A stretch of DNA of 34,976 nt from a virus (IMGVR_UViG_2671180676_000009), one strand, 5' to 3'; numbered from the stretch's first letter, positions 599 to 34,976 are shown. Numbers and translations are program-made. Notes: a model not told the origin generated them from the letters alone.

Positions 599-1648
599 GT
601 GCGGGTATTACTTAGACCTGTTCTGGTGCCTGAGCTTGGGCTGGTGGTCCTTAAGCCGGGCCGTGAATCCATACAGATATTTCATAATCCTCGAGTGCTG
701 GTGGAACCGGAACCAAAAAGCATGCGTAATCTGCCATCCGGAGTCGTTCCTGCCGTTCGCCAGCCGCTGGCGGAAGACAAAACATTGCTGCCGTTTTTTA
801 GTAACGAACGGGTGATTCGTGCTGCTGGCGGCGTTGGCGCATTGTCCGACTGGCTATTACGTCATGTTACATCCTGCCAGTGGCCTAATGGCGATTACCA
901 TCACACTGAAACAGTCATTCACCGTTATGGTACCGGCGCAATGGTGTTGTGCTGGCACTGCGACAACCAACTGCGTGACCAGACATCGGAATCACTGGAG
1001 CTGCTTGCTCAACAAAATCTGACAGCATGGGTGATTGACGTCATCCGTCACGCAATAAGCGGTACGCAGGAGCGGGAATTATCTTTGGCTGAATTATCCT
1101 GGTGGGCGGTCTGCAATCAGGTGGTGGATGCACTACCTGAGGCTGTATCGCGTCGTTCGCTGGGATTACCAGCGGAAAAAATCTGCTCGGTGTACCGCGA
1201 AAGCGACATCGTACCGGGAGAGCAGACCGCCACCAGCATATTGAAACAACGCACAAAAAATCTTGCACCGTTGCCTTACGCCCACCAGCAACAAAAATCA
1301 CCACAGGAAAAGACGGTGGTAAGCATCACCGTTGATCCAGAGTCTCCGGAATCTTTCATGAAGCTGCCTAAACGTCGCCGCTGGGTTAAGGAGAAATACA
1401 CACGTTGGGTTAAGACACAGCCGTGTGCTTGCTGCGGTATGCCAGCCGACGATCCGCATCATCTGATTGGTCACGGGCAGGGCGGAATGGGAACAAAAGC
1501 ACATGATCTCTTTGTGTTGCCTTTGTGCAGAAAGCATCACAACGAGCTGCATACGGATACAGTGGCATTTGAAGATAAGTATGGCTCCCAACTGGAGCTG
1601 ATATTTCGTTTTATCGATCGCGCGCTGACAATTGGCGTACTGGCGTAA
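599..1648 (+). CDS. ydfU: YdfU-like DUF968 protein with C-terminal Cys/His cluster (349 aa)
   Basis: GTG start at 599 preceded by GGAGG (590-594); C-terminus CACCG...DPHHLIGHG...CRKHHNELH; sits immediately upstream of Q as in Qin. Confidence 0.7.
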   Translation: MRVLLRPVLVPELGLVVLKPGRESIQIFHNPRVLVEPEPKSMRNLPSGVVPAVRQPLAEDKTLLPFFSNERVIRAAGGVGALSDWLLRHVTSCQWPNGDYHHTETVIHRYGTGAMVLCWHCDNQLRDQTSESLELLAQQNLTAWVIDVIRHAISGTQERELSLAELSWWAVCNQVVDALPEAVSRRSLGLPAEKICSVYRESDIVPGEQTATSILKQRTKNLAPLPYAHQQQKSPQEKTVVSITVDPESPESFMKLPKRRRWVKEKYTRWVKTQPCACCGMPADDPHHLIGHGQGGMGTKAHDLFVLPLCRKHHNELHTDTVAFEDKYGSQLELIFRFIDRALTIGVLA

Positions 1649-1661
1649 GTGGAGAACGAGC

Positions 1662-2414
1662 ATGAACCTTGAAGCCTTACCAAAATATTACTCCCCAAAA
1701 TCTCCAAAATTGAGCGATGACGCTCCAGCGACAGGCACCGGTTGTTTAACAATTACGGATGTAATGGCAGCGCAGGGGATGGTGCAGTCGAAAGCACCAC
1801 TTGGGTTGGCCTTATTTCTGGCAAAAGTTGGTGTTCAGGACCCTCAGTTTGCGATTGAAGGCCTGCTAAATTACGCGATGGCACTGGATAACCCGACATT
1901 GAACAAATTGAGTGAAGAAATCCGGTTACAGATTATTCCTTACCTCGTGAGTTTTGCCTTTGCTGATTACTCCAGGTCTGCGGCAAGTAAGGCTCGCTGT
2001 GAGCATTGTTCAGGTACGGGATTTTATAATGTATTGCGCGAAGTGGTGAAACACTACAGACGCGGGGAATCTGTAATCAAGGAAGAATGGGTGAAGGAAC
2101 TATGTCAGCATTGCCATGGTAAGGGCGAAGCCAGCACAGCGTGCAGAGGGTGTAAGGGTAAAGGGATTGTTCTGGATGAAAAAAGAACCCGGTTTCATGG
2201 CGTACCGGTATATAAGATTTGTGGGCGTTGTAATGGAAACCGGTTTAGTCGTTTACCGACCACGCTGGCACGACGTCATGTCCAGAAGCTGGTACCAGAC
2301 CTGACCGATTATCAGTGGTATAAGGGGTATGCGGACGTCATTGGTAAACTGGTAACAAAGTGCTGGCAGGAAGAAGCATACGCGGAAGCGCAATTGAGGA
2401 AGGTGACGAGATAA
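1662..2414 (+). CDS. quuQ: Late-gene antiterminator Q (250 aa, phage 21/82-like class)
   Basis: ATG 1662 with GGAG 7 nt upstream; four CxxCxG-type zinc-finger repeats (CEHCSGTG, CQHCHGKG, CRGCKGKG, CGRCNGNR); N-terminus MNLEALPKYY as in Qin QuuQ. Confidence 0.85.
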   Translation: MNLEALPKYYSPKSPKLSDDAPATGTGCLTITDVMAAQGMVQSKAPLGLALFLAKVGVQDPQFAIEGLLNYAMALDNPTLNKLSEEIRLQIIPYLVSFAFADYSRSAASKARCEHCSGTGFYNVLREVVKHYRRGESVIKEEWVKELCQHCHGKGEASTACRGCKGKGIVLDEKRTRFHGVPVYKICGRCNGNRFSRLPTTLARRHVQKLVPDLTDYQWYKGYADVIGKLVTKCWQEEAYAEAQLRKVTR

Positions 2415-2445
2415 ATGATTTTTGCTGAAGATGGCGACATGATGT

Positions 2446-2474
2446 TTGCATTTTTCAAAAAATATGGATAAAAT
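2446..2474 (+). promoter_or_regulatory. Putative late promoter pR'-like (TTGCAT, 17-bp spacer, TAAAAT)
   Basis: -35 TTGCAT 2446-2451 and -10 TAAAAT 2469-2474 just downstream of Q and about 45 nt upstream of an intrinsic terminator. Confidence 0.4.
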
Positions 2475-2520
2475 TTTTTCAACGATGGGCTTTGTATACC
2501 CGACGTTAAGAAAAAGTAGA

Positions 2521-2545
2521 AAACCCGCTGATGAGCGGGTTTTGT
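2521..2545. terminator. Bidirectional rho-independent terminator (candidate tR' for + strand, cspF terminator for - strand)
   Basis: Hairpin ACCCGCT-GATG-AGCGGGT flanked by an A-run upstream and a T-rich tract downstream. Confidence 0.6.
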
Positions 2546-2835
2546 GCTTTAAATGGGGCAATGGTAATGTTGAATCTCATCCCGGGACTCATGTCTGTTA
2601 ACTTATTATTTAGCTGGTGACTTGGTTATTTGCCTGATGTTTAAAATGTTTTCTTCCAGTACAATGTCCCTAAACACAATGAGTCTGCTTGTTATATTAT
2701 TAGCAGAGCTATTACGGCCAAAGTACAGCATAAGCTTTTAAAGCCAATCAACCAGTCATCAAGACAGACGGGGTTATTCATAAAAACTCTCCATGTGTGA
2801 TCCGATGGGGCCTGAAATTAAAGCTTTAATATAGC

Positions 2836-3048
2836 TCATGAAAGGTAAACATTGGCAGCTGAAGGGCCACGCAGACCATTTATCCGGCAAAATTCCACGC
2901 GTAATCCGGTGGTAATTTCTTCTGCATCGCGGAGATTGAGCGCTGAAACATGAAGCTGGACATCGATACGACCATCGGATGGGGTGATAAGACCCTTGCC
3001 GCTTTTGCCGTCAAAGGTTTTGACAATTCCTGTCATTTTACGGGACAA
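2836..3048 (-). CDS. cspF: Cold-shock protein family member CspF (70 aa)
   Basis: [26 protein letters not shown]... matches CspF/CspH branch lacking the canonical RNP aromatic motif. Confidence 0.9.
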
Positions 3049-3348
3049 AAAAATTCCTTAATACTGATAACTTGGCGCACTATACACACGTTCCTGAAGA
3101 AAGCTATAGTTTTTTGATGGGGTTGAAGATGGCTGGATGTCTAAAATAAACATTGCTTCATATGTTCAACTATGCGTTAATGATTGCGTCGGTTTGAAGA
3201 ACAGACGATATACGAAGTAGTTTACTAAAGCAGTTCTCATTTCAGGTGTTATTCACTTATTCCTTCTTTGAGTCTCTCCAATTAAGTACGAAGTCGTTTC
3301 TGTTATGCAAACCATTTATGCCGAAAGGCTCAAGTTAAGGAATGTAGA

Positions 3349-3564
3349 ATGTCAAATAAAATGACTGGTTTAGTAAAATGGTTTAACGCTGATAAAGGTT
3401 TCGGCTTTATTTCTCCTGTTGATGGTAGTAAAGATGTGTTTGTGCATTTTTCTGCGATTCAGAATGATAATTATCGAACCTTATTTGAAGGTCAAAAGGT
3501 TACCTTCTCTATAGAGAGTGGTGCTAAAGGTCCTGCAGCAGCAAATGTCATCATTACTGATTAA
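3349..3564 (+). CDS. cspB: Cold-shock protein CspB (71 aa)
   Basis: [38 protein letters not shown]...; long AT-rich leader upstream typical of cold-inducible csp genes. Confidence 0.95.
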
Positions 3565-3845
3565 AATTCATCGCTCGTCTGTATACGATAACGAAGAAGG
3601 CTGATGCCTGAGTAGAGATACGGACAGAGTAGTGAATATTGGATCTCTTTAATAAAAAGTAAGGAGGTCCAATACATGAAACAATGGCTAGCATATTTGG
3701 CAAAATCTTAATCAGGAAAAGTATGCTAACCATTGTGGTGAAGTGCAGGTTTGCTGCATGAATAGTTTTACAGCAGAAGCTAACTGCTGGCATGGCAAAA
3801 CAAAGTGCGTAAGTGGATGACTCCCACAAAAAGCACCACAATCTC

Positions 3846-3870
3846 AAACCCGCTCAGGCGGGTTTTTTAT
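3846..3870 (+). terminator. Rho-independent terminator
   Basis: Hairpin CCCGC-TCAG-GCGGG followed by TTTTTT at 3863-3868. Confidence 0.6.
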
Positions 3871-3927
3871 TATCTGCTTTAAATATATTATTAAAATATA
3901 AAAAATACTTGTTACTAATAAAATCAA

Positions 3928-4098
3928 TCAGGCTACAGCTTTAAGATTTGTCTGGAATACTTTGTTGCAATGAGGGCAGATCAAAAGGGCACCTTTTTGT
4001 ACTCTTGAAAAACTGTGTTCTGACTCTTGGGTGCAGTTTGGGCAGGAACATTTAACGAGATAATTACGGCGTGATTTTGAGTTTTTACGTTCTGACAT
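3928..4098 (-). CDS. Small C4 zinc-ribbon protein (56 aa), antisense to the late operon
   Basis: ATG at 4098 (minus) with AGGAAA 5 nt upstream; MSERKNSKSRRNYLVKCSCPNC-x18-CPHC (Cx2C...Cx2C) with basic N-terminus. Confidence 0.45.
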   Translation of the reverse strand: MSERKNSKSRRNYLVKCSCPNCTQESEHSFSRVQKGALLICPHCNKVFQTNLKAVA

Positions 4099-4317
4099 AG
4101 GCTTTTCCTGTATAAATGGCCGTATACAGTACACTAAATATGAAAACATTTCTCGTATTATTATTTTATATATGACTTTCTTTCAAAATAATTACCCACA
4201 TTTTTAATGTGTATGTTTTTTTAGCGCCGTTGAGAACAACGTGTGCTGTCAAAACTACCCCGTAGACTCCGATCTTTTCAAACATATTGCACCATCCGTG
4301 TACATCGGGGTGAGGAT

Positions 4318-4533
4318 ATGAAATCAATGGATAAGTTAACAACAGGTGTTGCCTATGGCACATCGGCGGGTAATGCTGGTTTCTGGGCATTGCAGTTACT
4401 CGATAAAGTAACTCCGTCACAGTGGGCTGCAATCGGTGTGCTGGGTAGCCTGGTTTTTGGCCTGCTGACGTATCTGACAAATCTTTATTTCAAGATTAAA
4501 GAAGACAGGCGTAAGGCTGCGAGAGGAGAGTAA
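4318..4533 (+). CDS. essQ: Holin, phage 21 S-type pinholin (71 aa) with dual-start motif MKSM
   Basis: [28 protein letters not shown]...[35 protein letters not shown]; RBS GGGGTGAGG before ATG; two TMDs. Confidence 0.9.
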
Positions 4534-4537
4534 TCCA

Positions 4538-4845
4538 ATGACTCAAGACTATGAACTGGTTGTGAAAGGAGTCCGTAATTTTGAGAATAAAGTTACGGTA
4601 ACTGTAGCCTTACAGGACAAAGAACGCTTTGACGGTGAAATTTTTGACCTGGATGTCGCCATGGACCGTGTTGAAGGAGCTGCGCTGGAGTTTTATGAGG
4701 CAGCAGCCAGAAGGAGCGTCCGGCAAGTCTTCCTGGAAGTAGCAGAAAAATTGTCAGAAAAAGTTGAGTCTTATCTGCAGCATCAGTACTCCTTTAAGAT
4801 TGAAAATCCTGCCAATAAGCACGAGCGTCCTCATCATAAATATCT

Positions 4846-4849
<4 letters not shown>
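4538..4849 (+). CDS. ydfR: YdfR-like protein (DUF1327) inserted between holin and endolysin (103 aa)
   Basis: ORF follows holin stop by 4 nt with GAGAGGAGAG RBS; matches Qin YdfR. Confidence 0.8.
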
Positions 4850-5873
<1,024 letters not shown>

Positions 5874-6234
5874 GGTAATATTAAATCGGAACATTTACAT
5901 CGCGGAATGTAAAATTTAAATAAAAAGGACTCTTCCATGAGCCAAAATTCCTGAAATCTTAAGGGTAAGATAAAAGGTCTTAATCAGAATGACACGTTTT
6001 ATTAATAAATAAAGCTATTCTTTCATTGCTGTGTTTTTCTTTACAAAAGTAATCCTTGCTATGGGTGGTTAATCATGCGTTAATGGTGTTCTGGTTTGTT
6101 ACAAATTTATCTGAAGCAGTCATTGTTATAATTTTATTATTTGTACCTCTTGAGATTTCCTTGTTGGTTTTTCTCTCTGATATTTTTTTCGGACCATTCT
6201 GCCCAAGGGCTAATTTCTTCAAAAGGTAATAATT

Positions 6235-6447
6235 ATGTCTAACAAAATGACTGGTTTAGTGAAATGGTTTAACCCTGAAAAAGGTTTTGGTTTCATCACG
6301 CCGAAAGATGGCAGCAAAGATGTGTTTGTCCATTTCTCAGCAATTCAGAGCAACGATTTCAAAACATTAACTGAGAATCAGGAAGTTGAATTTGGTATTG
6401 AGAACGGACCTAAAGGTCCTGCCGCTGTTCATGTAGTGGCGCTTTGA
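6235..6447 (+). CDS. cspI: Cold-shock protein CspI (70 aa)
   Basis: [42 protein letters not shown]...; long AT-rich 5' leader. Confidence 0.95.
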
Positions 6448-6652
6448 GGTAGACAATATTACAAACCATATTCACTTTAGATGCCCGTGTTGTCATGGTT
6501 CCCAGTATAGAACATCATCTTTTGATGTTTCTGACATGAATCCTTTCGGGGCAAAATGTATCTTTTGTAAATCAATGATGATTACATTTGATAATATTTC
6601 ACAATACTTAAATGCCAGCCGTCTGTCGTTGGATTTAAAAAAGTGAAAATGA

Positions 6653-6675
6653 AGGCTCCTTCGGGAGCTTTTTTG
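6653..6675 (+). terminator. Rho-independent terminator
   Basis: Hairpin GGCTCC-TTCG-GGAGCT followed by TTTTTT. Confidence 0.6.
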
Positions 6676-6718
6676 CTTGGTGTCTATTCGATGGATACTC
6701 ACATACTACGGTAACATC

Positions 6719-6949
6719 ATGAAAAAAATCATAGTTTTTTTTAACTCTGAACCAGCAGTGGTAGTGCCAGCGATGACTGGAGTTAACACCATCATGCGTG
6801 AATATCCAAATGGCGAAAAAACACACCTTACTGTAATGGCCGCAGGGTTTCCATCTCTGACCGGAGATCATAAAGTCATTTATGTAGCCGCGGATCGACA
6901 TGTTACTTCAGAAGAAATTCTGGAAGCAGCAATAAGGCTCTTGAGTTGA
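6719..6949 (+). CDS. Hypothetical small protein in the cold-shock locus (76 aa from MKKIIV; possibly ynfN/ymcE-like)
   Basis: ORF in the position occupied by ynfN in K-12 Qin (between cspI and gnsB); start chosen at first ATG after the terminator; weak RBS. Confidence 0.4.
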   Translation: MKKIIVFFNSEPAVVVPAMTGVNTIMREYPNGEKTHLTVMAAGFPSLTGDHKVIYVAADRHVTSEEILEAAIRLLS

Positions 6950-7120
6950 TTTGATGCTATTGCATTGATAATTCAGGAAAATTCTCTTTGTCTGCTTGTG
7001 TAAAATTTAGACTATCGTATGTTGATTATTGCGATGTTTCATCTTATCTTTTACACGTTTGCACCATATAATCGACTTACTGTGTAACTGGAAAGTCATA
7101 ACAGACTAAAAGAGGAAATG

Positions 7121-7294
7121 ATGAATATTGAAAACTTAAAAACAAAAGCAGAAGCAGATATTTCTGAATATATAACAAAAAAAATTATTGAACTTAAGAA
7201 AAAGACCGGGAAAGAAGTTACCAGTATTCAGTTTACCGCACGGGAAAAAATGACGGGTCTTGAAAGCTATGATGTCAAGATTAATTTAATCTGA
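7121..7294 (+). CDS. gnsB: GnsA/GnsB-family small protein (57 aa)
   Basis: MNIENLKTKAEADISEYITKKIIELKKKTGKEVTSIQFTAREKMTGLESYDVKINLI; GAGG 6 nt upstream; below the 60-aa cutoff of the ORF track. Confidence 0.7.
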   Translation: MNIENLKTKAEADISEYITKKIIELKKKTGKEVTSIQFTAREKMTGLESYDVKINLI

Positions 7295-7445
7295 TGTATT
7301 CAATAATAAAATTTATCCATAAACCTCGTTTTTACGGGGTTTTGTTATATTTGAATGGTTCCGAATATCTAAATCACAATTGTTGATGGTTTTTATTAAA
7401 CCAATGCAGTCCGGCTCAGGAGTGAGAGAAGCCGGACGTTATGGT

Positions 7446-7856
7446 TTAGCGTGGTAAGATCTGTGTAGTTTTCTGGATGCTTTCAGTAAATAGTAATGAA
7501 TTATCAAAGGTATAGTAATATCTTTTTTGTTCGTGGATATTTGTAACCCACCGAAAAACTCCTGCTTTAGCAAGGTTTCTTCTGTATTCCTGAAATGTGA
7601 TCTCTCTGGATTTCAGCTTATTAGAGGTCGTTTCTATAAGATGCCTATCCTTTGAAAATTTGACAGACACAATGTTTTTTAGGCCCTTTAATAACACTGT
7701 ATTATCATTTTTTAATACAATATGAACATTCTCTGTGGCTAAATAGTAAATGTAATGTGAGACATTGTGACGTTTTAGCTCAGAATAAAACCATTGATAG
7801 TTTAAATCGTTTCGAACTTTATCAAATATTTGTTTAAAAATGACTACCTGATCCAT
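7446..7856 (-). CDS. ydfO: YdfO-like DUF1398 protein (136 aa)
   Basis: [40 protein letters not shown]...; GGAAGG 7 nt upstream of ATG at 7856. Confidence 0.8.
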
Positions 7857-7913
7857 AGATAAACCTTCCATGTGATATGAGGGGGCGTAGTCTGCACGAT
7901 TATCTAAATTGCT

Positions 7914-8147
7914 TCAATCTGGTCTGACCTGTTTTCTGAGCAATTCAGTAATGTCACTCTTTTCTTTGTTTGCTTCAGAAGAAACTCTTTTTTCTGAGCA
8001 CAGTCTCCGGCGGCAGGCTTCAATGACCCAGGCTGAGAAATTCCCGGACCCTTTTTGCTCAAGAGCGATGTTAATTTGTTCAATCATTTGGTTAGGAAAG
8101 CGGATGTTGCGGGTTGTTGTTCTGCGGGTTCTGTTCTTCGTTGACAT
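7914..8147 (-). CDS. ynfO: Arc/Mnt-like ribbon-helix-helix protein (77 aa), homologue of the rightmost lambda ORF
   Basis: N-terminal basic tail then IRFPNQMIEQINIALEQKGS-GNFSAWVIEACRRRL (beta-strand/helix/helix pattern as in Arc); lies immediately beside cos. Confidence 0.7.
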   Translation of the reverse strand: MSTKNRTRRTTTRNIRFPNQMIEQINIALEQKGSGNFSAWVIEACRRRLCSEKRVSSEANKEKSDITELLRKQVRPD

Positions 8148-31000: not shown

Positions 31001-31093
31001 TCACATGGACACACCATCACCGTTAACGCTGCTGGTAACGCGGAAAACACCGTCAAAAACATCGCATTTAACTATATTGTGAGGCTTGCATAA
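28080..31093 (+). pseudogene. stf: Side tail fibre gene stf split across three reading frames (junctions near 29373-29376 and 29654-29656)
   Basis: Frame 0 (28080-29411) has the Stf N-terminus and A/S/T-rich repeat; frame 1 has AKRAEDIASAVALEDASTTKKGIVQLSSATNSTSE...ATPKAVKA; frame 2 continues to the His-rich Stf C-terminus ...[14 protein letters not shown]. Confidence 0.75.
28430..29370 (+). repeat. Low-complexity Ala/Ser/Thr-rich repetitive segment of Stf with recurring KTSETNA-type units
   Basis: About 310 codons dominated by A, S, T, K, E with repeated AAKTSETNA / AKSSETNA motifs; yields long spurious ORFs in other frames and on the opposite strand. Confidence 0.7.
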
Positions 31094-31668
31094 TGGCATT
31101 CAGAATGAGTGAACAACCACGGACCATAAAAATTTATAATCTGCTGGCCGGAACTAATGAATTTATTGGTGAAGGTGATGCATATATTCCGCCTCATACA
31201 GGTCTGCCAGCAAACAGTACCGATATTGCACCGCCAGATATTCCGGCTGGCTTCGTGGCTGTTTTCAACAGTGATGAGTCATCGTGGCATCTCGTTGAAG
31301 ATCATCGGGGTAAAACTGTTTATGACGTGGCTTCCGGCGACGCGTTATTTATTTCTGAACTCGGTCCGTTACCGGAAAATGTTACCTGGTTATCGCCGGA
31401 AGGGGAGTTTCAGAAGTGGAACGGCACAGCCTGGGTGAAGGATACGGAAGCAGAAAAACTGTTCCGGATCCGGGAGGCGGAAGAAACAAAAAACAACCTG
31501 ATGCAGGTAGCCAGTGAGCATATTGCGCCGCTTCAGGATGCTGCAGATCTGGAAATTGCAACGGAGGAAGAAATCTCGTTGCTGGAAGCATGGAAAAAGT
31601 ATCGGGTATTGCTGAACCGTGTTGATACGTCAACTGCACAGGATATTGAATGGCCAGCACTGCCGTAG
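31093..31668 (+). CDS. tfa: Tail fibre assembly chaperone Tfa (191 aa)
   Basis: ATG overlaps stf stop (TAATG); [48 protein letters not shown]... as Tfa proteins. Confidence 0.9.
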
Positions 31669-32672: not shown

Positions 32673-32906
32673 TTACATTTTACCATTTAAATTTTGGTTG
32701 TCTTTAAGAACTGATATCGCTGTTTGTAATAATTCTTTGTTATCCAGCCATGATTTTTTCTTTATGTTTCCTTCAATGTAATCAAGCAATGTTCTGGTAT
32801 TGATAGGTCTTCCCTGTTTTGCTACTTCCACTACAGCATCCCCTAGGATAATTCTTACTTCAGGAAGCTGCGCAGGGAACCACTTTAGGGTGTCTTTTGA
32901 TTTCAT
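32673..32906 (-). CDS. ydfK: YdfK/YnaE-family small protein (77 aa)
   Basis: MKSKDTLKWFPAQLPEVRIILGDAVVEVAKQGRPINTRTLLDYIEGNIKKKSWLD...; AAGGAA 7 nt upstream of ATG at 32906. Confidence 0.8.
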   Translation of the reverse strand: MKSKDTLKWFPAQLPEVRIILGDAVVEVAKQGRPINTRTLLDYIEGNIKKKSWLDNKELLQTAISVLKDNQNLNGKM

Positions 32907-33692
32907 GAAGATATTCCTTAAAATATTATTGATTTTCATTGCGATATTGTATGTCTGATTCAGGATATGTTGACTTATACATCGGTTTTGTCTGGGTTAT
33001 TGGATATGCCAATCCCTAATTTTATTAGGGCATGACTAAAAATGCTGAATATGATAAGGAGAGATGTGATTATCAGTATGCTGTTCATATAGCCTCGAAT
33101 TAGTAATGTGTTATATATGATATAGTTGACAATTTTTATCTTGGGTGTTCTTAAAGTTCGTAGATAAACATTGTCGTTTCAGGTATACAGGAATGCTAAC
33201 AGGTGGCAGCAAAAATCAGGCGGTTTATGGCGCAAGCTGAAGCGGCAACTGCAAACTATCTTATGCAGAGACTCTACACGGATTGGGTTTAAAAGTATAC
33301 ATAGATAACAGTTTTTATCTGAAAAAGAAAAATATCAAGGTGATATAGCCTATATGCCTTTGATGCGGAGGAATGAATGTGATGGGAGTGATGTATCTGA
33401 ATAGTTGAAAAACCGCAGACACGCCTTATGCAAGAACGTGCTGCGATTGGCTGGTAAATTTTTCGATAGTGTGAGTATTGAATGATTTCTAGCCGTTCTT
33501 GATTTTACGCATAAATCCATGAAAAAACTACTTATCTGTTGGGGAGTTTTTTTGGGGCATATATGGGACAGAAATAGGCCCCAGATAGACACTGAGATCG
33601 AACTTAGGATGCTTTTTAAAAAAATGCAACTATCTGAAAAAACCTAGAAAACGCCAAGGAAACCACAGGATGGGAAAAAACACCTGTGAATT

Positions 33693-34976
33693 ATGGATTT
33701 CCAGTTATATTCGCTCGGCGCAGCGTTAGTGTTTCATGAAATATTTTTTCCTGAATCATCAACGGCAATGGCGTTAATTCTGGCAATGGGAACCTACGGT
33801 GCAGGTTATGTGGCGCGTATTGTCGGAGCATTTATTTTCGGCAAAATGGGCGACAGAATAGGGCGTAAAAAAGTGCTCTTTATTACCATCACCATGATGG
33901 GGATCTGTACCACCTTAATTGGTGTGTTACCGACCTATGCACAGATTGGTGTTTTTGCACCCATCTTGCTGGTGACGTTGCGTATTATTCAGGGGTTGGG
34001 TGCAGGTGCGGAAATTTCCGGTGCCGGTACGATGCTGGCGGAATATGCGCCAAAAGGTAAGCGCGGAATTATCTCCTCATTTGTGGCTATGGGAACTAAC
34101 TGCGGAACCTTGAGCGCAACGGCAATCTGGGCCTTTATGTTCTTCATTCTCAGTAAAGAGGAACTGCTGGCGTGGGGATGGCGTATACCGTTCCTGGCGA
34201 GTGTTGTCGTGATGGTCTTTGCTATCTGGTTGCGTATGAATCTGAAAGAAAGCCCGGTCTTTGAGAAGGTTAACGACAGTAACCAACCGACAGCAAAACC
34301 TGCACCTGCTGGTAGCATGTTCCAGAGCAAATCCTTCTGGCTGGCAACAGGGCTGCGTTTTGGTCAGGCGGGTAACTCCGGGTTAATTCAGACTTTCCTT
34401 GCAGGCTATTTAGTGCAGACGTTATTGTTTAACAAAGCAATTCCAACAGATGCATTGATGATCAGTTCGATTCTCGGCTTTATGACCATTCCGTTCCTTG
34501 GTTGGTTATCCGATAAAATTGGTCGCCGGATCCCGTATATTATTATGAATACCTCCGCGATTGTGCTGGCATGGCCAATGCTTTCTATCATTGTAGATAA
34601 AAGCTATGCCCCGAGCACCATTATGGTTGCACTGATTGTGATTCATAACTGTGCGGTGCTGGGATTATTTGCTCTGGAAAACATTACCATGGCAGAAATG
34701 TTCGGCTGTAAAAACCGCTTTACCCGGATGGCTATTTCTAAAGAAATTGGTGGTCTTATCGCTTCCGGTTTTGGTCCTATCCTGGCGGGTATTTTCTGCA
34801 CCATGACGGAATCCTGGTATCCGATCGCCATTATGATCATGGCATATTCAGTGATTGGTTTAATCTCTGCGCTGAAAATGCCAGAGGTGAAAGACCGTGA
34901 TTTAAGTGCGCTGGAAGACGCTGCGGAAGATCAACCGCGTGTTGTAAGAGCTGCGCAACCTTCCAGAAGTCTGTAA
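33693..34976 (+). CDS. ydfJ: MFS metabolite:H+ symporter-family transporter, apparently N-terminally truncated (427 aa)
   Basis: ORF begins inside the conserved TM1 motif (MDFQLYSLGAALVFHEIFFPE); in-frame stop 6 nt upstream; 12-TM MFS features downstream (GDRIGRKK, RIIQGLGAGAE). Confidence 0.7.
   Translation: MDFQLYSLGAALVFHEIFFPESSTAMALILAMGTYGAGYVARIVGAFIFGKMGDRIGRKKVLFITITMMGICTTLIGVLPTYAQIGVFAPILLVTLRIIQGLGAGAEISGAGTMLAEYAPKGKRGIISSFVAMGTNCGTLSATAIWAFMFFILSKEELLAWGWRIPFLASVVVMVFAIWLRMNLKESPVFEKVNDSNQPTAKPAPAGSMFQSKSFWLATGLRFGQAGNSGLIQTFLAGYLVQTLLFNKAIPTDALMISSILGFMTIPFLGWLSDKIGRRIPYIIMNTSAIVLAWPMLSIIVDKSYAPSTIMVALIVIHNCAVLGLFALENITMAEMFGCKNRFTRMAISKEIGGLIASGFGPILAGIFCTMTESWYPIAIMIMAYSVIGLISALKMPEVKDRDLSALEDAAEDQPRVVRAAQPSRSL

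Follow-up and report, generated by a model that had tools for sequence, protein, structure and literature searches.

ynfU, a small zinc-ribbon gene in the cargo slot of a Qin-like prophage, and its linkage to cold-shock-type genes

The open reading frame (ORF) on the minus strand at 3928-4098 of the window, by which we mean the whole stretch of viral DNA analysed here (34,976 nucleotides), is almost certainly ynfU (b4776), whose product is a stand-alone C4 zinc-ribbon protein of 56 residues. The ORF is thus a rediscovery of a gene that already has a name and an annotation. Together with cspF and cspB, ynfU very probably makes up low-GC cargo, in the order cspF← cspB→ ←ynfU, which occupies the variable slot between the antiterminator gene Q and the holin gene of a Qin-like prophage; ynfU itself appears to be a self-contained expression unit. 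The YnfU family as a whole is mostly non-phage and csp-linked. The best explanation that we can offer joins the identity of ynfU, its autonomous cargo status and a nucleic-acid-binding mechanism linked to the Csp proteins; as a whole it is a serious candidate, held with somewhat less than even confidence.

Identity and conservation of ynfU

The minus strand at 3928-4098 translates exactly as MSERKNSKSRRNYLVKCSCPNCTQESEHSFSRVQKGALLICPHCNKVFQTNLKAVA followed by a stop codon, that is, 56 codons for a protein opening with MSERKNSKSRRNYLVKCSCPNC and ending with CPHCNKVFQTNLKAVA. The Shine-Dalgarno sequence AGGA (4106-4109, minus strand) lies 7 nt 5′ of the ATG at 4098, in line with the 56-residue ORF with a good ribosome-binding site described in the first-pass annotation. 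The ORF list also holds a longer form of 73 residues, starting from the ATG at 4149. Its additional N-terminal residues are not conserved among homologues and overlap a conserved promoter-like block, and the RefSeq start is that of the 56-residue form. Hence, we take the 56-residue start as the correct one.

The DNA is 100% identical over 451 bp to ynfU of E. coli K-12 MG1655 (b4776, Qin prophage), annotated there as ‘putative zinc-binding protein YnfU’. The neighbours at the K-12 locus, cspB and essD/essQ, match as well. The K-12 gene itself does not differ in any way from that of the window; however, the window holds a Qin-like lambdoid prophage at full length, while Qin of K-12 is truncated. 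Over 25 kb the window is about 98% identical to Escherichia phage PhiR42_1. The 451-bp stretch is found in 1651 of 5426 complete E. coli genomes, nearly always as a single copy. The protein matches Pfam family PF23499 (YnfU) with E=3.5e-31 and 107.3 bits (cut-off 27), with residues 1-49 of 49 covered, and NCBIfam family NF038384 with E=1.1e-22 and 79.4 bits (cut-off 36). Thus translation, DNA identity to K-12 ynfU, both family profiles and dN/dS all bear on the identification of the gene.

Homologues were collected by a scan of one genome per species, which gave 80 species-level loci with 66 distinct full-length YnfU proteins of 51-60 residues. In word-indexed and exhaustive HMM searches the family is confined to Enterobacterales. 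Loci L016, L038, L048 and L050 carry Escherichia- or Enterobacter-type ynfU and neighbours on oddly labelled contigs (Veillonella parvula MAG, Vagococcus sp., Kocuria sabuli and Bacillota MAG); these labels are probably due to contamination or mis-binning.

The cysteine layout read from the translation is C19-x2-C22-x18-C41-x2-C44, with C17 in addition, so that the Cx2C-x18-Cx2C pattern proposed earlier is confirmed. C19, C22, C41 and C44 are invariant in 66/66 variants, and C17 is nearly so. The linker SEHS[FY]xRVQKG between the two CPxC knuckles, which stand 18 residues apart, is invariant in the 66 variants too. All of them have a pI of 9.4-10.0 and a net charge of +6 to +8, with an N-terminal tail that is always basic. 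The median pairwise dN/dS of ynfU is 0.10, which indicates strong purifying selection, and the entropy is 1.22 at the third codon position versus 0.32 at the second. Conservation, selection and translation in K-12 thus go far beyond chance for this ORF.

A search for remote homologues extended the family to Yersinia, Hafnia, Serratia, Erwinia, Cronobacter and Providencia; none of the members added by it has a known function. The divergent subfamily, formed by proteins of Yersinia, Hafnia, Cronobacter, Serratia and Erwinia and by a second copy in Citrobacter, has no C17 but keeps the four ribbon cysteines. Therefore, the zinc site is assigned to the C4 set.

The prophage slot and the signals around ynfU

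The gene is flanked by cspB (CDS 3349-3564, plus strand) and by the P21-type holin gene essQ (4318-4533, plus strand). Farther to the left lie cspF (2836-3048, minus strand; annotated, with a CSD Pfam match), the third member of the unit, and the antiterminator gene Q (quuQ/ydfT, 1632-2414, plus strand; ORF list and annotation). cspB, annotated as such, has a CSD Pfam match with E=9.8e-32 and carries a cspA-type thermoregulator 5′ UTR (Rfam RF01766, 158.8 bits), gene and UTR together lying at 3188-3580. To the right of ynfU, and divergent from it, follows the P21-type lysis cassette of essQ, ydfR, rrrQ and rzpQ (4318-5873, plus strand). It is separated by cspI from ynfN (6719-6949, plus strand, within an uninterrupted ORF at 6677-6949), located by tblastn, ORF and annotation. 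In the K-12 record ynfN is marked as a frameshifted pseudogene, and no Pfam or NCBIfam family was found for it. As claimed in the first-pass annotation, ynfU faces the late operon, on the strand opposite to Q, cspB and essQ. Judged from the gene order, late transcription from the 3′ side of Q would run antisense to ynfU; the scan for the late promoter gave consensus matches only.

The GC content is 36-43% at 2401-4400, where cspF, cspB and ynfU lie, versus 48-60% in Q and the structural genes. The sister phage PhiR29_1, whose structural genes are 96% identical to those of the window and which shares its morphogenesis genes, carries in the Q-holin slot an OmpD porin gene on the opposite strand, replacing cspF-cspB-ynfU (locus L102, 909-2006). 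A YnfU homologue occurs in 8 phage records, and 511 phage records share DNA with the window. The earlier description of ynfU as a moron agrees with the low-GC Q-S slot, the porin gene in the slot of the sister phage, the conserved promoter-like block upstream of the gene and the putative hairpin terminator after it. The label fits, but the unit is the three-gene block cspF-cspB-ynfU, not ynfU alone. The lambdoid morons of the Q-S region (stx, the nmpC/ompD porin) and bor/lom are low-GC, autonomously expressed cargo between conserved late-region genes, as this unit appears to be. Unlike them, cspF-cspB-ynfU is a cold-shock-type unit that is present outside phages in many genera.

Two low-GC blocks (33-43% GC) flank the lysis cassette, cspF-cspB-ynfU at 2401-4400 and cspI-ynfN-gnsB-ydfO at 5601-8000. 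It looks as if the lysis genes and cspI had split one island, since ynfU and ynfN adjoin divergently in other genera. The Rfam cspA thermoregulator is found in the 5′ UTR of cspI as well (6090-6474, plus strand, 114.2 bits); therefore, the prophage carries two cold-sensing mRNAs.

Several further features of the prophage are given here as observations. The holin starts with MKSMDK, with two Met codons three codons apart (4318-4329, plus strand), and matches the Pfam family ‘Bacteriophage P21 holin S’. This start is presumably the dual-start holin/antiholin arrangement known for S21. A match to Rfam IS009 (220.9 bits, 31436-31634, plus strand) falls in the 3′ part of a 191-residue ORF (31093-31668), which by its position belongs to the tail-fibre-assembly region. 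A ydfK/ynaE-type gene (32673-32939, minus strand) is found where the prophage ends, with the chromosomal transporter gene at 33693 just beyond it.

The alignment of 81 distinct upstream regions shows that about 70 nt on the 5′ side of ynfU are kept from genus to genus irrespective of the flanking genes, and the same block is present in about 30 different flanking contexts. In the direction of ynfU the order is AAAATnAA..CnAGCnAT, about 14 variable nucleotides, GTG-TAnnGT and CAGGA; in the window these fall at 4160-4167, 4148-4155, 4126-4134 and 4106-4110. The GTG-TAnnGT block (GTGTACTGT here, 4126-4134, minus strand) is −10-like and stands at a fixed distance of 33-34 nt from the ATG, and its columns have near-maximal information content in the alignment. 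Relative to it, the AAAATnAA...CnAGCnAT block (AAAATAATAATACGAGAAAT here, 4148-4167, minus strand) has the position of an UP element or −35. CAGGA is kept in nearly all of the 81 sequences. RNAalifold, applied to positions −60 to +8 of ynfU from 32 species, predicted 0 pairs. Since no RNA structure is shared, we read the upstream conservation as a signal at the DNA level. A 7-bp hairpin of the E. coli sequence, CTGTATA/TATACAG (4108-4129), was considered as an RNA element and rejected, as it is not conserved.

Hence, the upstream block is a candidate promoter, which would consist of an UP-like element, a weak −35 and a TAnnGT −10. An alternative sigma-70 match, TTGAAA-18-AATAAT (4157-4186, minus strand), agrees with the consensus at 10/12 positions. 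It is treated as a candidate only, because the region has 4 consensus matches versus 3.6 in shuffled sequences. Comparison of the block by eye with the consensus sequences for Zur, Fur, CRP, sigma-E, sigma-32, sigma-54 and sigma-S gave nothing convincing, and no palindrome resembling a Zur or Fur box was seen by eye on the 5′ side of ynfU. Genomic SELEX (PMC5493296) placed RpoE and RpoH holoenzyme peaks in the spacer between essQ and cspB, at that time without an annotated gene. The peaks, at K-12 positions 1638930 (RpoE) and 1639072 (RpoH), convert to about 3997 and 3855 in the window. They may reflect the ynfU promoter region, at a resolution too low to say.

A GC-rich hairpin (3846-3865) separates cspB and ynfU, which converge on it. 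The terminator scan of the plus strand gives it as a canonical terminator, assigned to cspB. The minus-strand RNA folds into the hairpin too, with the 8-bp stem (z = −2.7) lying 62 nt beyond the stop codon of ynfU and UUUGAGAUU coming after it. The hairpin would thus serve as a terminator both ways, likely a weaker one for ynfU.

The stretch of about 280 nt from the cspB stop to this terminator also holds an 11-codon ORF, MKQWLAYLAKS (ATG 3676 to TAA 3711, plus strand), with a perfect Shine-Dalgarno sequence, TAAGGAGGT, 7 nt before it. The K-12 record has no annotation for this ORF. Its 52-nt string including the Shine-Dalgarno sequence (3660-3711) is exactly conserved in K-12, in PhiR42_1 and at three Escherichia-group loci. 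In other genera the gap between cspB and ynfU is much shorter.

With a promoter-like block about 30-70 nt upstream, AGGA and a hairpin terminator, ynfU appears self-contained, and it would therefore be made in the uninduced lysogen; the promoter and the terminator are assigned from sequence. Expression from the lysogen had been proposed on first reading, and published data agree with it. ynfU was found by Ribo-RET, which profiles ribosomes stalled at initiation (Weaver et al. 2019, bioRxiv 10.1101/511675). In the same work, chromosomally SPA-tagged YnfU was detected by western blot in uninduced MG1655, a cryptic lysogen, and it was the most abundant among the new small proteins described. A PIRT-seq transposon-reporter screen detected ynfU independently (PMC12350097). 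Once the prophage is induced, polymerase modified by Q would pass through the unit antisense to ynfU, probably silencing the gene.

No function of YnfU is reported in the literature searched. Papers on silver nanoparticles and on hypomagnetic fields name the gene in passing, and we give them no functional weight. As for its neighbours, cspB, cspI, cspF and ynfN are upregulated together in long-term stationary phase (PMC7406224), and YnfR, from the same island, is cold-induced (PMC6001520); ynfU was unannotated in both studies.

Linkage to csp genes and ynfN across genomes

A CSD gene is found within 700 bp of ynfU at 58 of the 80 species loci, and a nearby csp gene is absent from 22; Qin-like Q or lysis genes occur within 6 kb at only 10. 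Since the 80 loci are phylogenetically related, these counts overstate the number of independent events. Clustering of the ynfU flanks gives about 30 upstream contexts, and the csp neighbour is kept in 22 of them, which shows that the ynfU-csp pair moves as a unit. The density of csp genes within 700 bp of ynfU is at least 12-fold above that in farther parts of the same loci. With nine csp paralogues in the 4.6 Mb of E. coli, the enrichment of csp genes near ynfU is far larger at the scale of the whole genome. In 9 of 11 loci tested the neighbouring csp gene has the Rfam cspA thermoregulator. Nevertheless, the co-occurrence of csp and ynfU might simply reflect that both are short, AT-rich cargo accumulating at shared hotspots.

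The arrangement seen most often is ynfU→ ←cspB-like cspF-like→. A cspF-like gene follows ynfU by 180-213 bp on the same strand in Klebsiella and Raoultella. At 19 loci tblastn finds a ynfN homologue divergent from ynfU, 97-424 bp on its 5′ side; in the orientation of the window these loci read cspF← cspB→ ←ynfU ynfN→. Qin-type phages have the same order, but with the P21-type lysis cassette and cspI between ynfU and ynfN. Other genera have the cspF-cspB-ynfU triad as well, and so does phage PHB10, in which ynfN-ynfU-cspB-cspF lies next to the integrase gene, distant from the lysis genes. A Klebsiella phage has ynfU alone beside the holin gene, without a csp gene.

Clearly chromosomal, non-prophage contexts of ynfU were found in three genera. 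In Enterobacter these are GST and tautomerase genes, and in Klebsiella a PTS operon. In Lelliottia the order is liv transporter-ynaE-ynfU-csp-tRNAs-pgsA-uvrC, with the YnaE-family gene directly on the 5′ side of ynfU. Members of the divergent subfamily from Yersinia and the second copy of Citrobacter are mostly not csp-adjacent, and those from Hafnia and Cronobacter are loosely so.

Fold and possible role of YnfU

The AlphaFold2 (AF2) model of YnfU has a mean pLDDT of 71.5 and consists of a beta-ribbon and one short helix. Strands 12-16 and 25-29 flank C19/C22, and strands 38-40 and 47-49 flank C41/C44. Thus the predicted fold is a classical zinc ribbon with two knuckles, each between beta-strands, in agreement with the ribbon first proposed from the cysteine pattern.

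The best non-self Pfam match is the N-terminal ribbon of PhnA/YjdM (PF08274; E 1.3e-4, 22.4 bits, under the cut-off of 30.8), a two-knuckle zinc ribbon of similar length; the resemblance was remarked by Weaver et al. too (bioRxiv 10.1101/511675). Its solved representative, P. aeruginosa PA0128 (PDB 2akl), matches with E 1.4 in the PDB profile search, which covered all PDB sequences at E <= 10 and returned six chains. However, PhnA ribbons are N-terminal domains of larger proteins, while YnfU is stand-alone with a basic tail, and the relationship is at the level of fold only. Archaeal HVO_2753 and ribosome-bound zinc proteins of M. acetivorans, S. solfataricus and Pyrococcus give non-significant matches (E 0.27-1.2, TM about 0.4) and belong to another domain of life. 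Ribosomal protein L44e is also a weak, non-significant echo. A PHROGs search gave no family below E 0.002.

We tentatively suggest that YnfU, as a basic zinc ribbon, binds nucleic acid and works alongside the Csp stress proteins, a possible role to which its gene neighbourhood and charge point. The four invariant cysteines would bind one zinc ion and hold the small beta-ribbon. The invariant SEHS[FY]xRVQKG linker and the basic N-terminal tail would make up a surface that binds nucleic acid, with RNA or the ribosome as the most likely target. YnfU would then share with the Csp RNA chaperones a part in the post-transcriptional response to stress (cold shock, long-term stationary phase), and it would not be a phage regulator.

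YnfU might instead be a small modulator that binds a larger protein rather than nucleic acid, for example in the manner of a DNL-like chaperone-escort zinc finger, a doubtful possibility that nevertheless deserves to be weighed first. The DNL zinc finger (Tim15/Zim17/Hep1, PDB 2e2z) shares with YnfU the local pattern C-x2-C-x3-S-x-H-[ST]-x-S-[RK]...KG..L..CPxC. Tim15 is the best solved-structure profile match (E 0.025, over CxxC-xxS-H-S..KG..L-CPxC), and Pfam zf-DNL (PF05180) matches with E 0.074 and 13.5 bits against a cut-off of 27. The invariant SEHS[FY]xRVQKG surface could just as well contact a protein. Binding to a larger protein is the rule among characterised small proteins of bacteria, and Weaver et al. 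(10.1101/511675) expect protein binding for most small proteins. However, the DNL-type matches stay under every curated cut-off. The family comprises organellar Hsp70 escorts of eukaryotes and is named for a motif that YnfU does not have: the D-N-L motif (HLIAD-N/H-L), sought after the second knuckle, was not found, and the sequence past C44 is NKVFQTNLKAVA. Apart from csp and ynfN, there is no conserved partner gene, and the strongly basic charge is conserved.

A role directed at the phage itself is quite improbable. In this case the transcript or the protein of ynfU would hold the late/lysis operon in check, through interference of convergent transcription with read-through from Q or through control of the divergent holin gene, or would act in superinfection exclusion. 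The gene is antisense to the late operon and stands 219 bp from the holin gene, divergent from it, and ynfU of the Klebsiella phage occupies the same position next to a holin gene without csp. However, 70/80 species loci have no Qin-like phage genes nearby, and the cassette of PHB10 is distant from its lysis genes. Moreover, selection is strong on the protein sequence, not on transcription alone, and a PADLOC search gave no match to a defence family.

The first-pass annotation considered a TraR/DksA-like or Ogr-like regulatory role, and this found no support in profile, solved-structure or fold searches. YnfU is indeed a small, phage-borne C4 zinc protein, and TraR/DksA and Ogr/Delta proteins are likewise small, phage- or plasmid-borne and with four cysteines. 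Lambdoid phages carry TraR-like genes, and P2-like phages carry Ogr. However, the profile check against these families places neither PF01258 nor PF04606 among the best 25 of the 30 Pfam families at E <= 10 (listed E up to 0.48), and no DksA or TraR chain is among the six PDB chains (E <= 10). The x18 spacing of YnfU differs from the x17 of TraR/DksA and from the Cx2C-x22-Cx4C of Ogr, the modelled beta-ribbon with one short helix differs from the helical DksA-type finger, and most family members are outside phages. Hence, it is very improbable that YnfU binds the secondary channel of RNA polymerase as TraR/DksA do, or activates host or phage transcription as Ogr/Delta do. Least probable of all is a zinc (metal) buffer or carrier without a macromolecular target, to which the annotation ‘putative zinc-binding’ and the loose grouping of ynfU with iron-related genes in one preprint could point, since the lone C4 site of so small a protein (56 residues) serves a structural purpose in essentially all zinc ribbons known, the most conserved residues belong to the non-ligand linker, and the upstream region has, by eye, no Zur- or Fur-box-like palindrome.

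The nucleic-acid-binding ribbon working with Csp proteins has a functional analogy, and only that, in Lin28 and the plant CSDPs, RNA chaperones made of a CSD plus zinc knuckles. These proteins combine the CSD and a small zinc module, with CCHC retroviral-type knuckles, in a single polypeptide, whereas YnfU and the Csp proteins come from separate genes, with a C4 ribbon as the zinc module. By this analogy, YnfU could be the zinc-module partner of CspB/CspF-class proteins, co-binding RNA or the ribosome as a split counterpart of the eukaryotic CSD-zinc-knuckle chaperones, and cspF-cspB-ynfU-ynfN could be a mobile stress-adaptation module spread by lambdoid phages; we regard this extension as speculative and rather unlikely.

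What is new here is that the linkage to csp and ynfN gives an abundant small protein without an assigned function a testable context. It points to cold shock, long-term stationary phase and binding of RNA or the ribosome, and away from phage regulation and RNA polymerase binding. In Qin-like phages the Q-S slot houses a portable cassette of cold-shock-type genes. ynfU itself is not confined to phages; strong selection acts on it across Enterobacteriaceae, and it travels with cold-inducible csp genes and ynfN.
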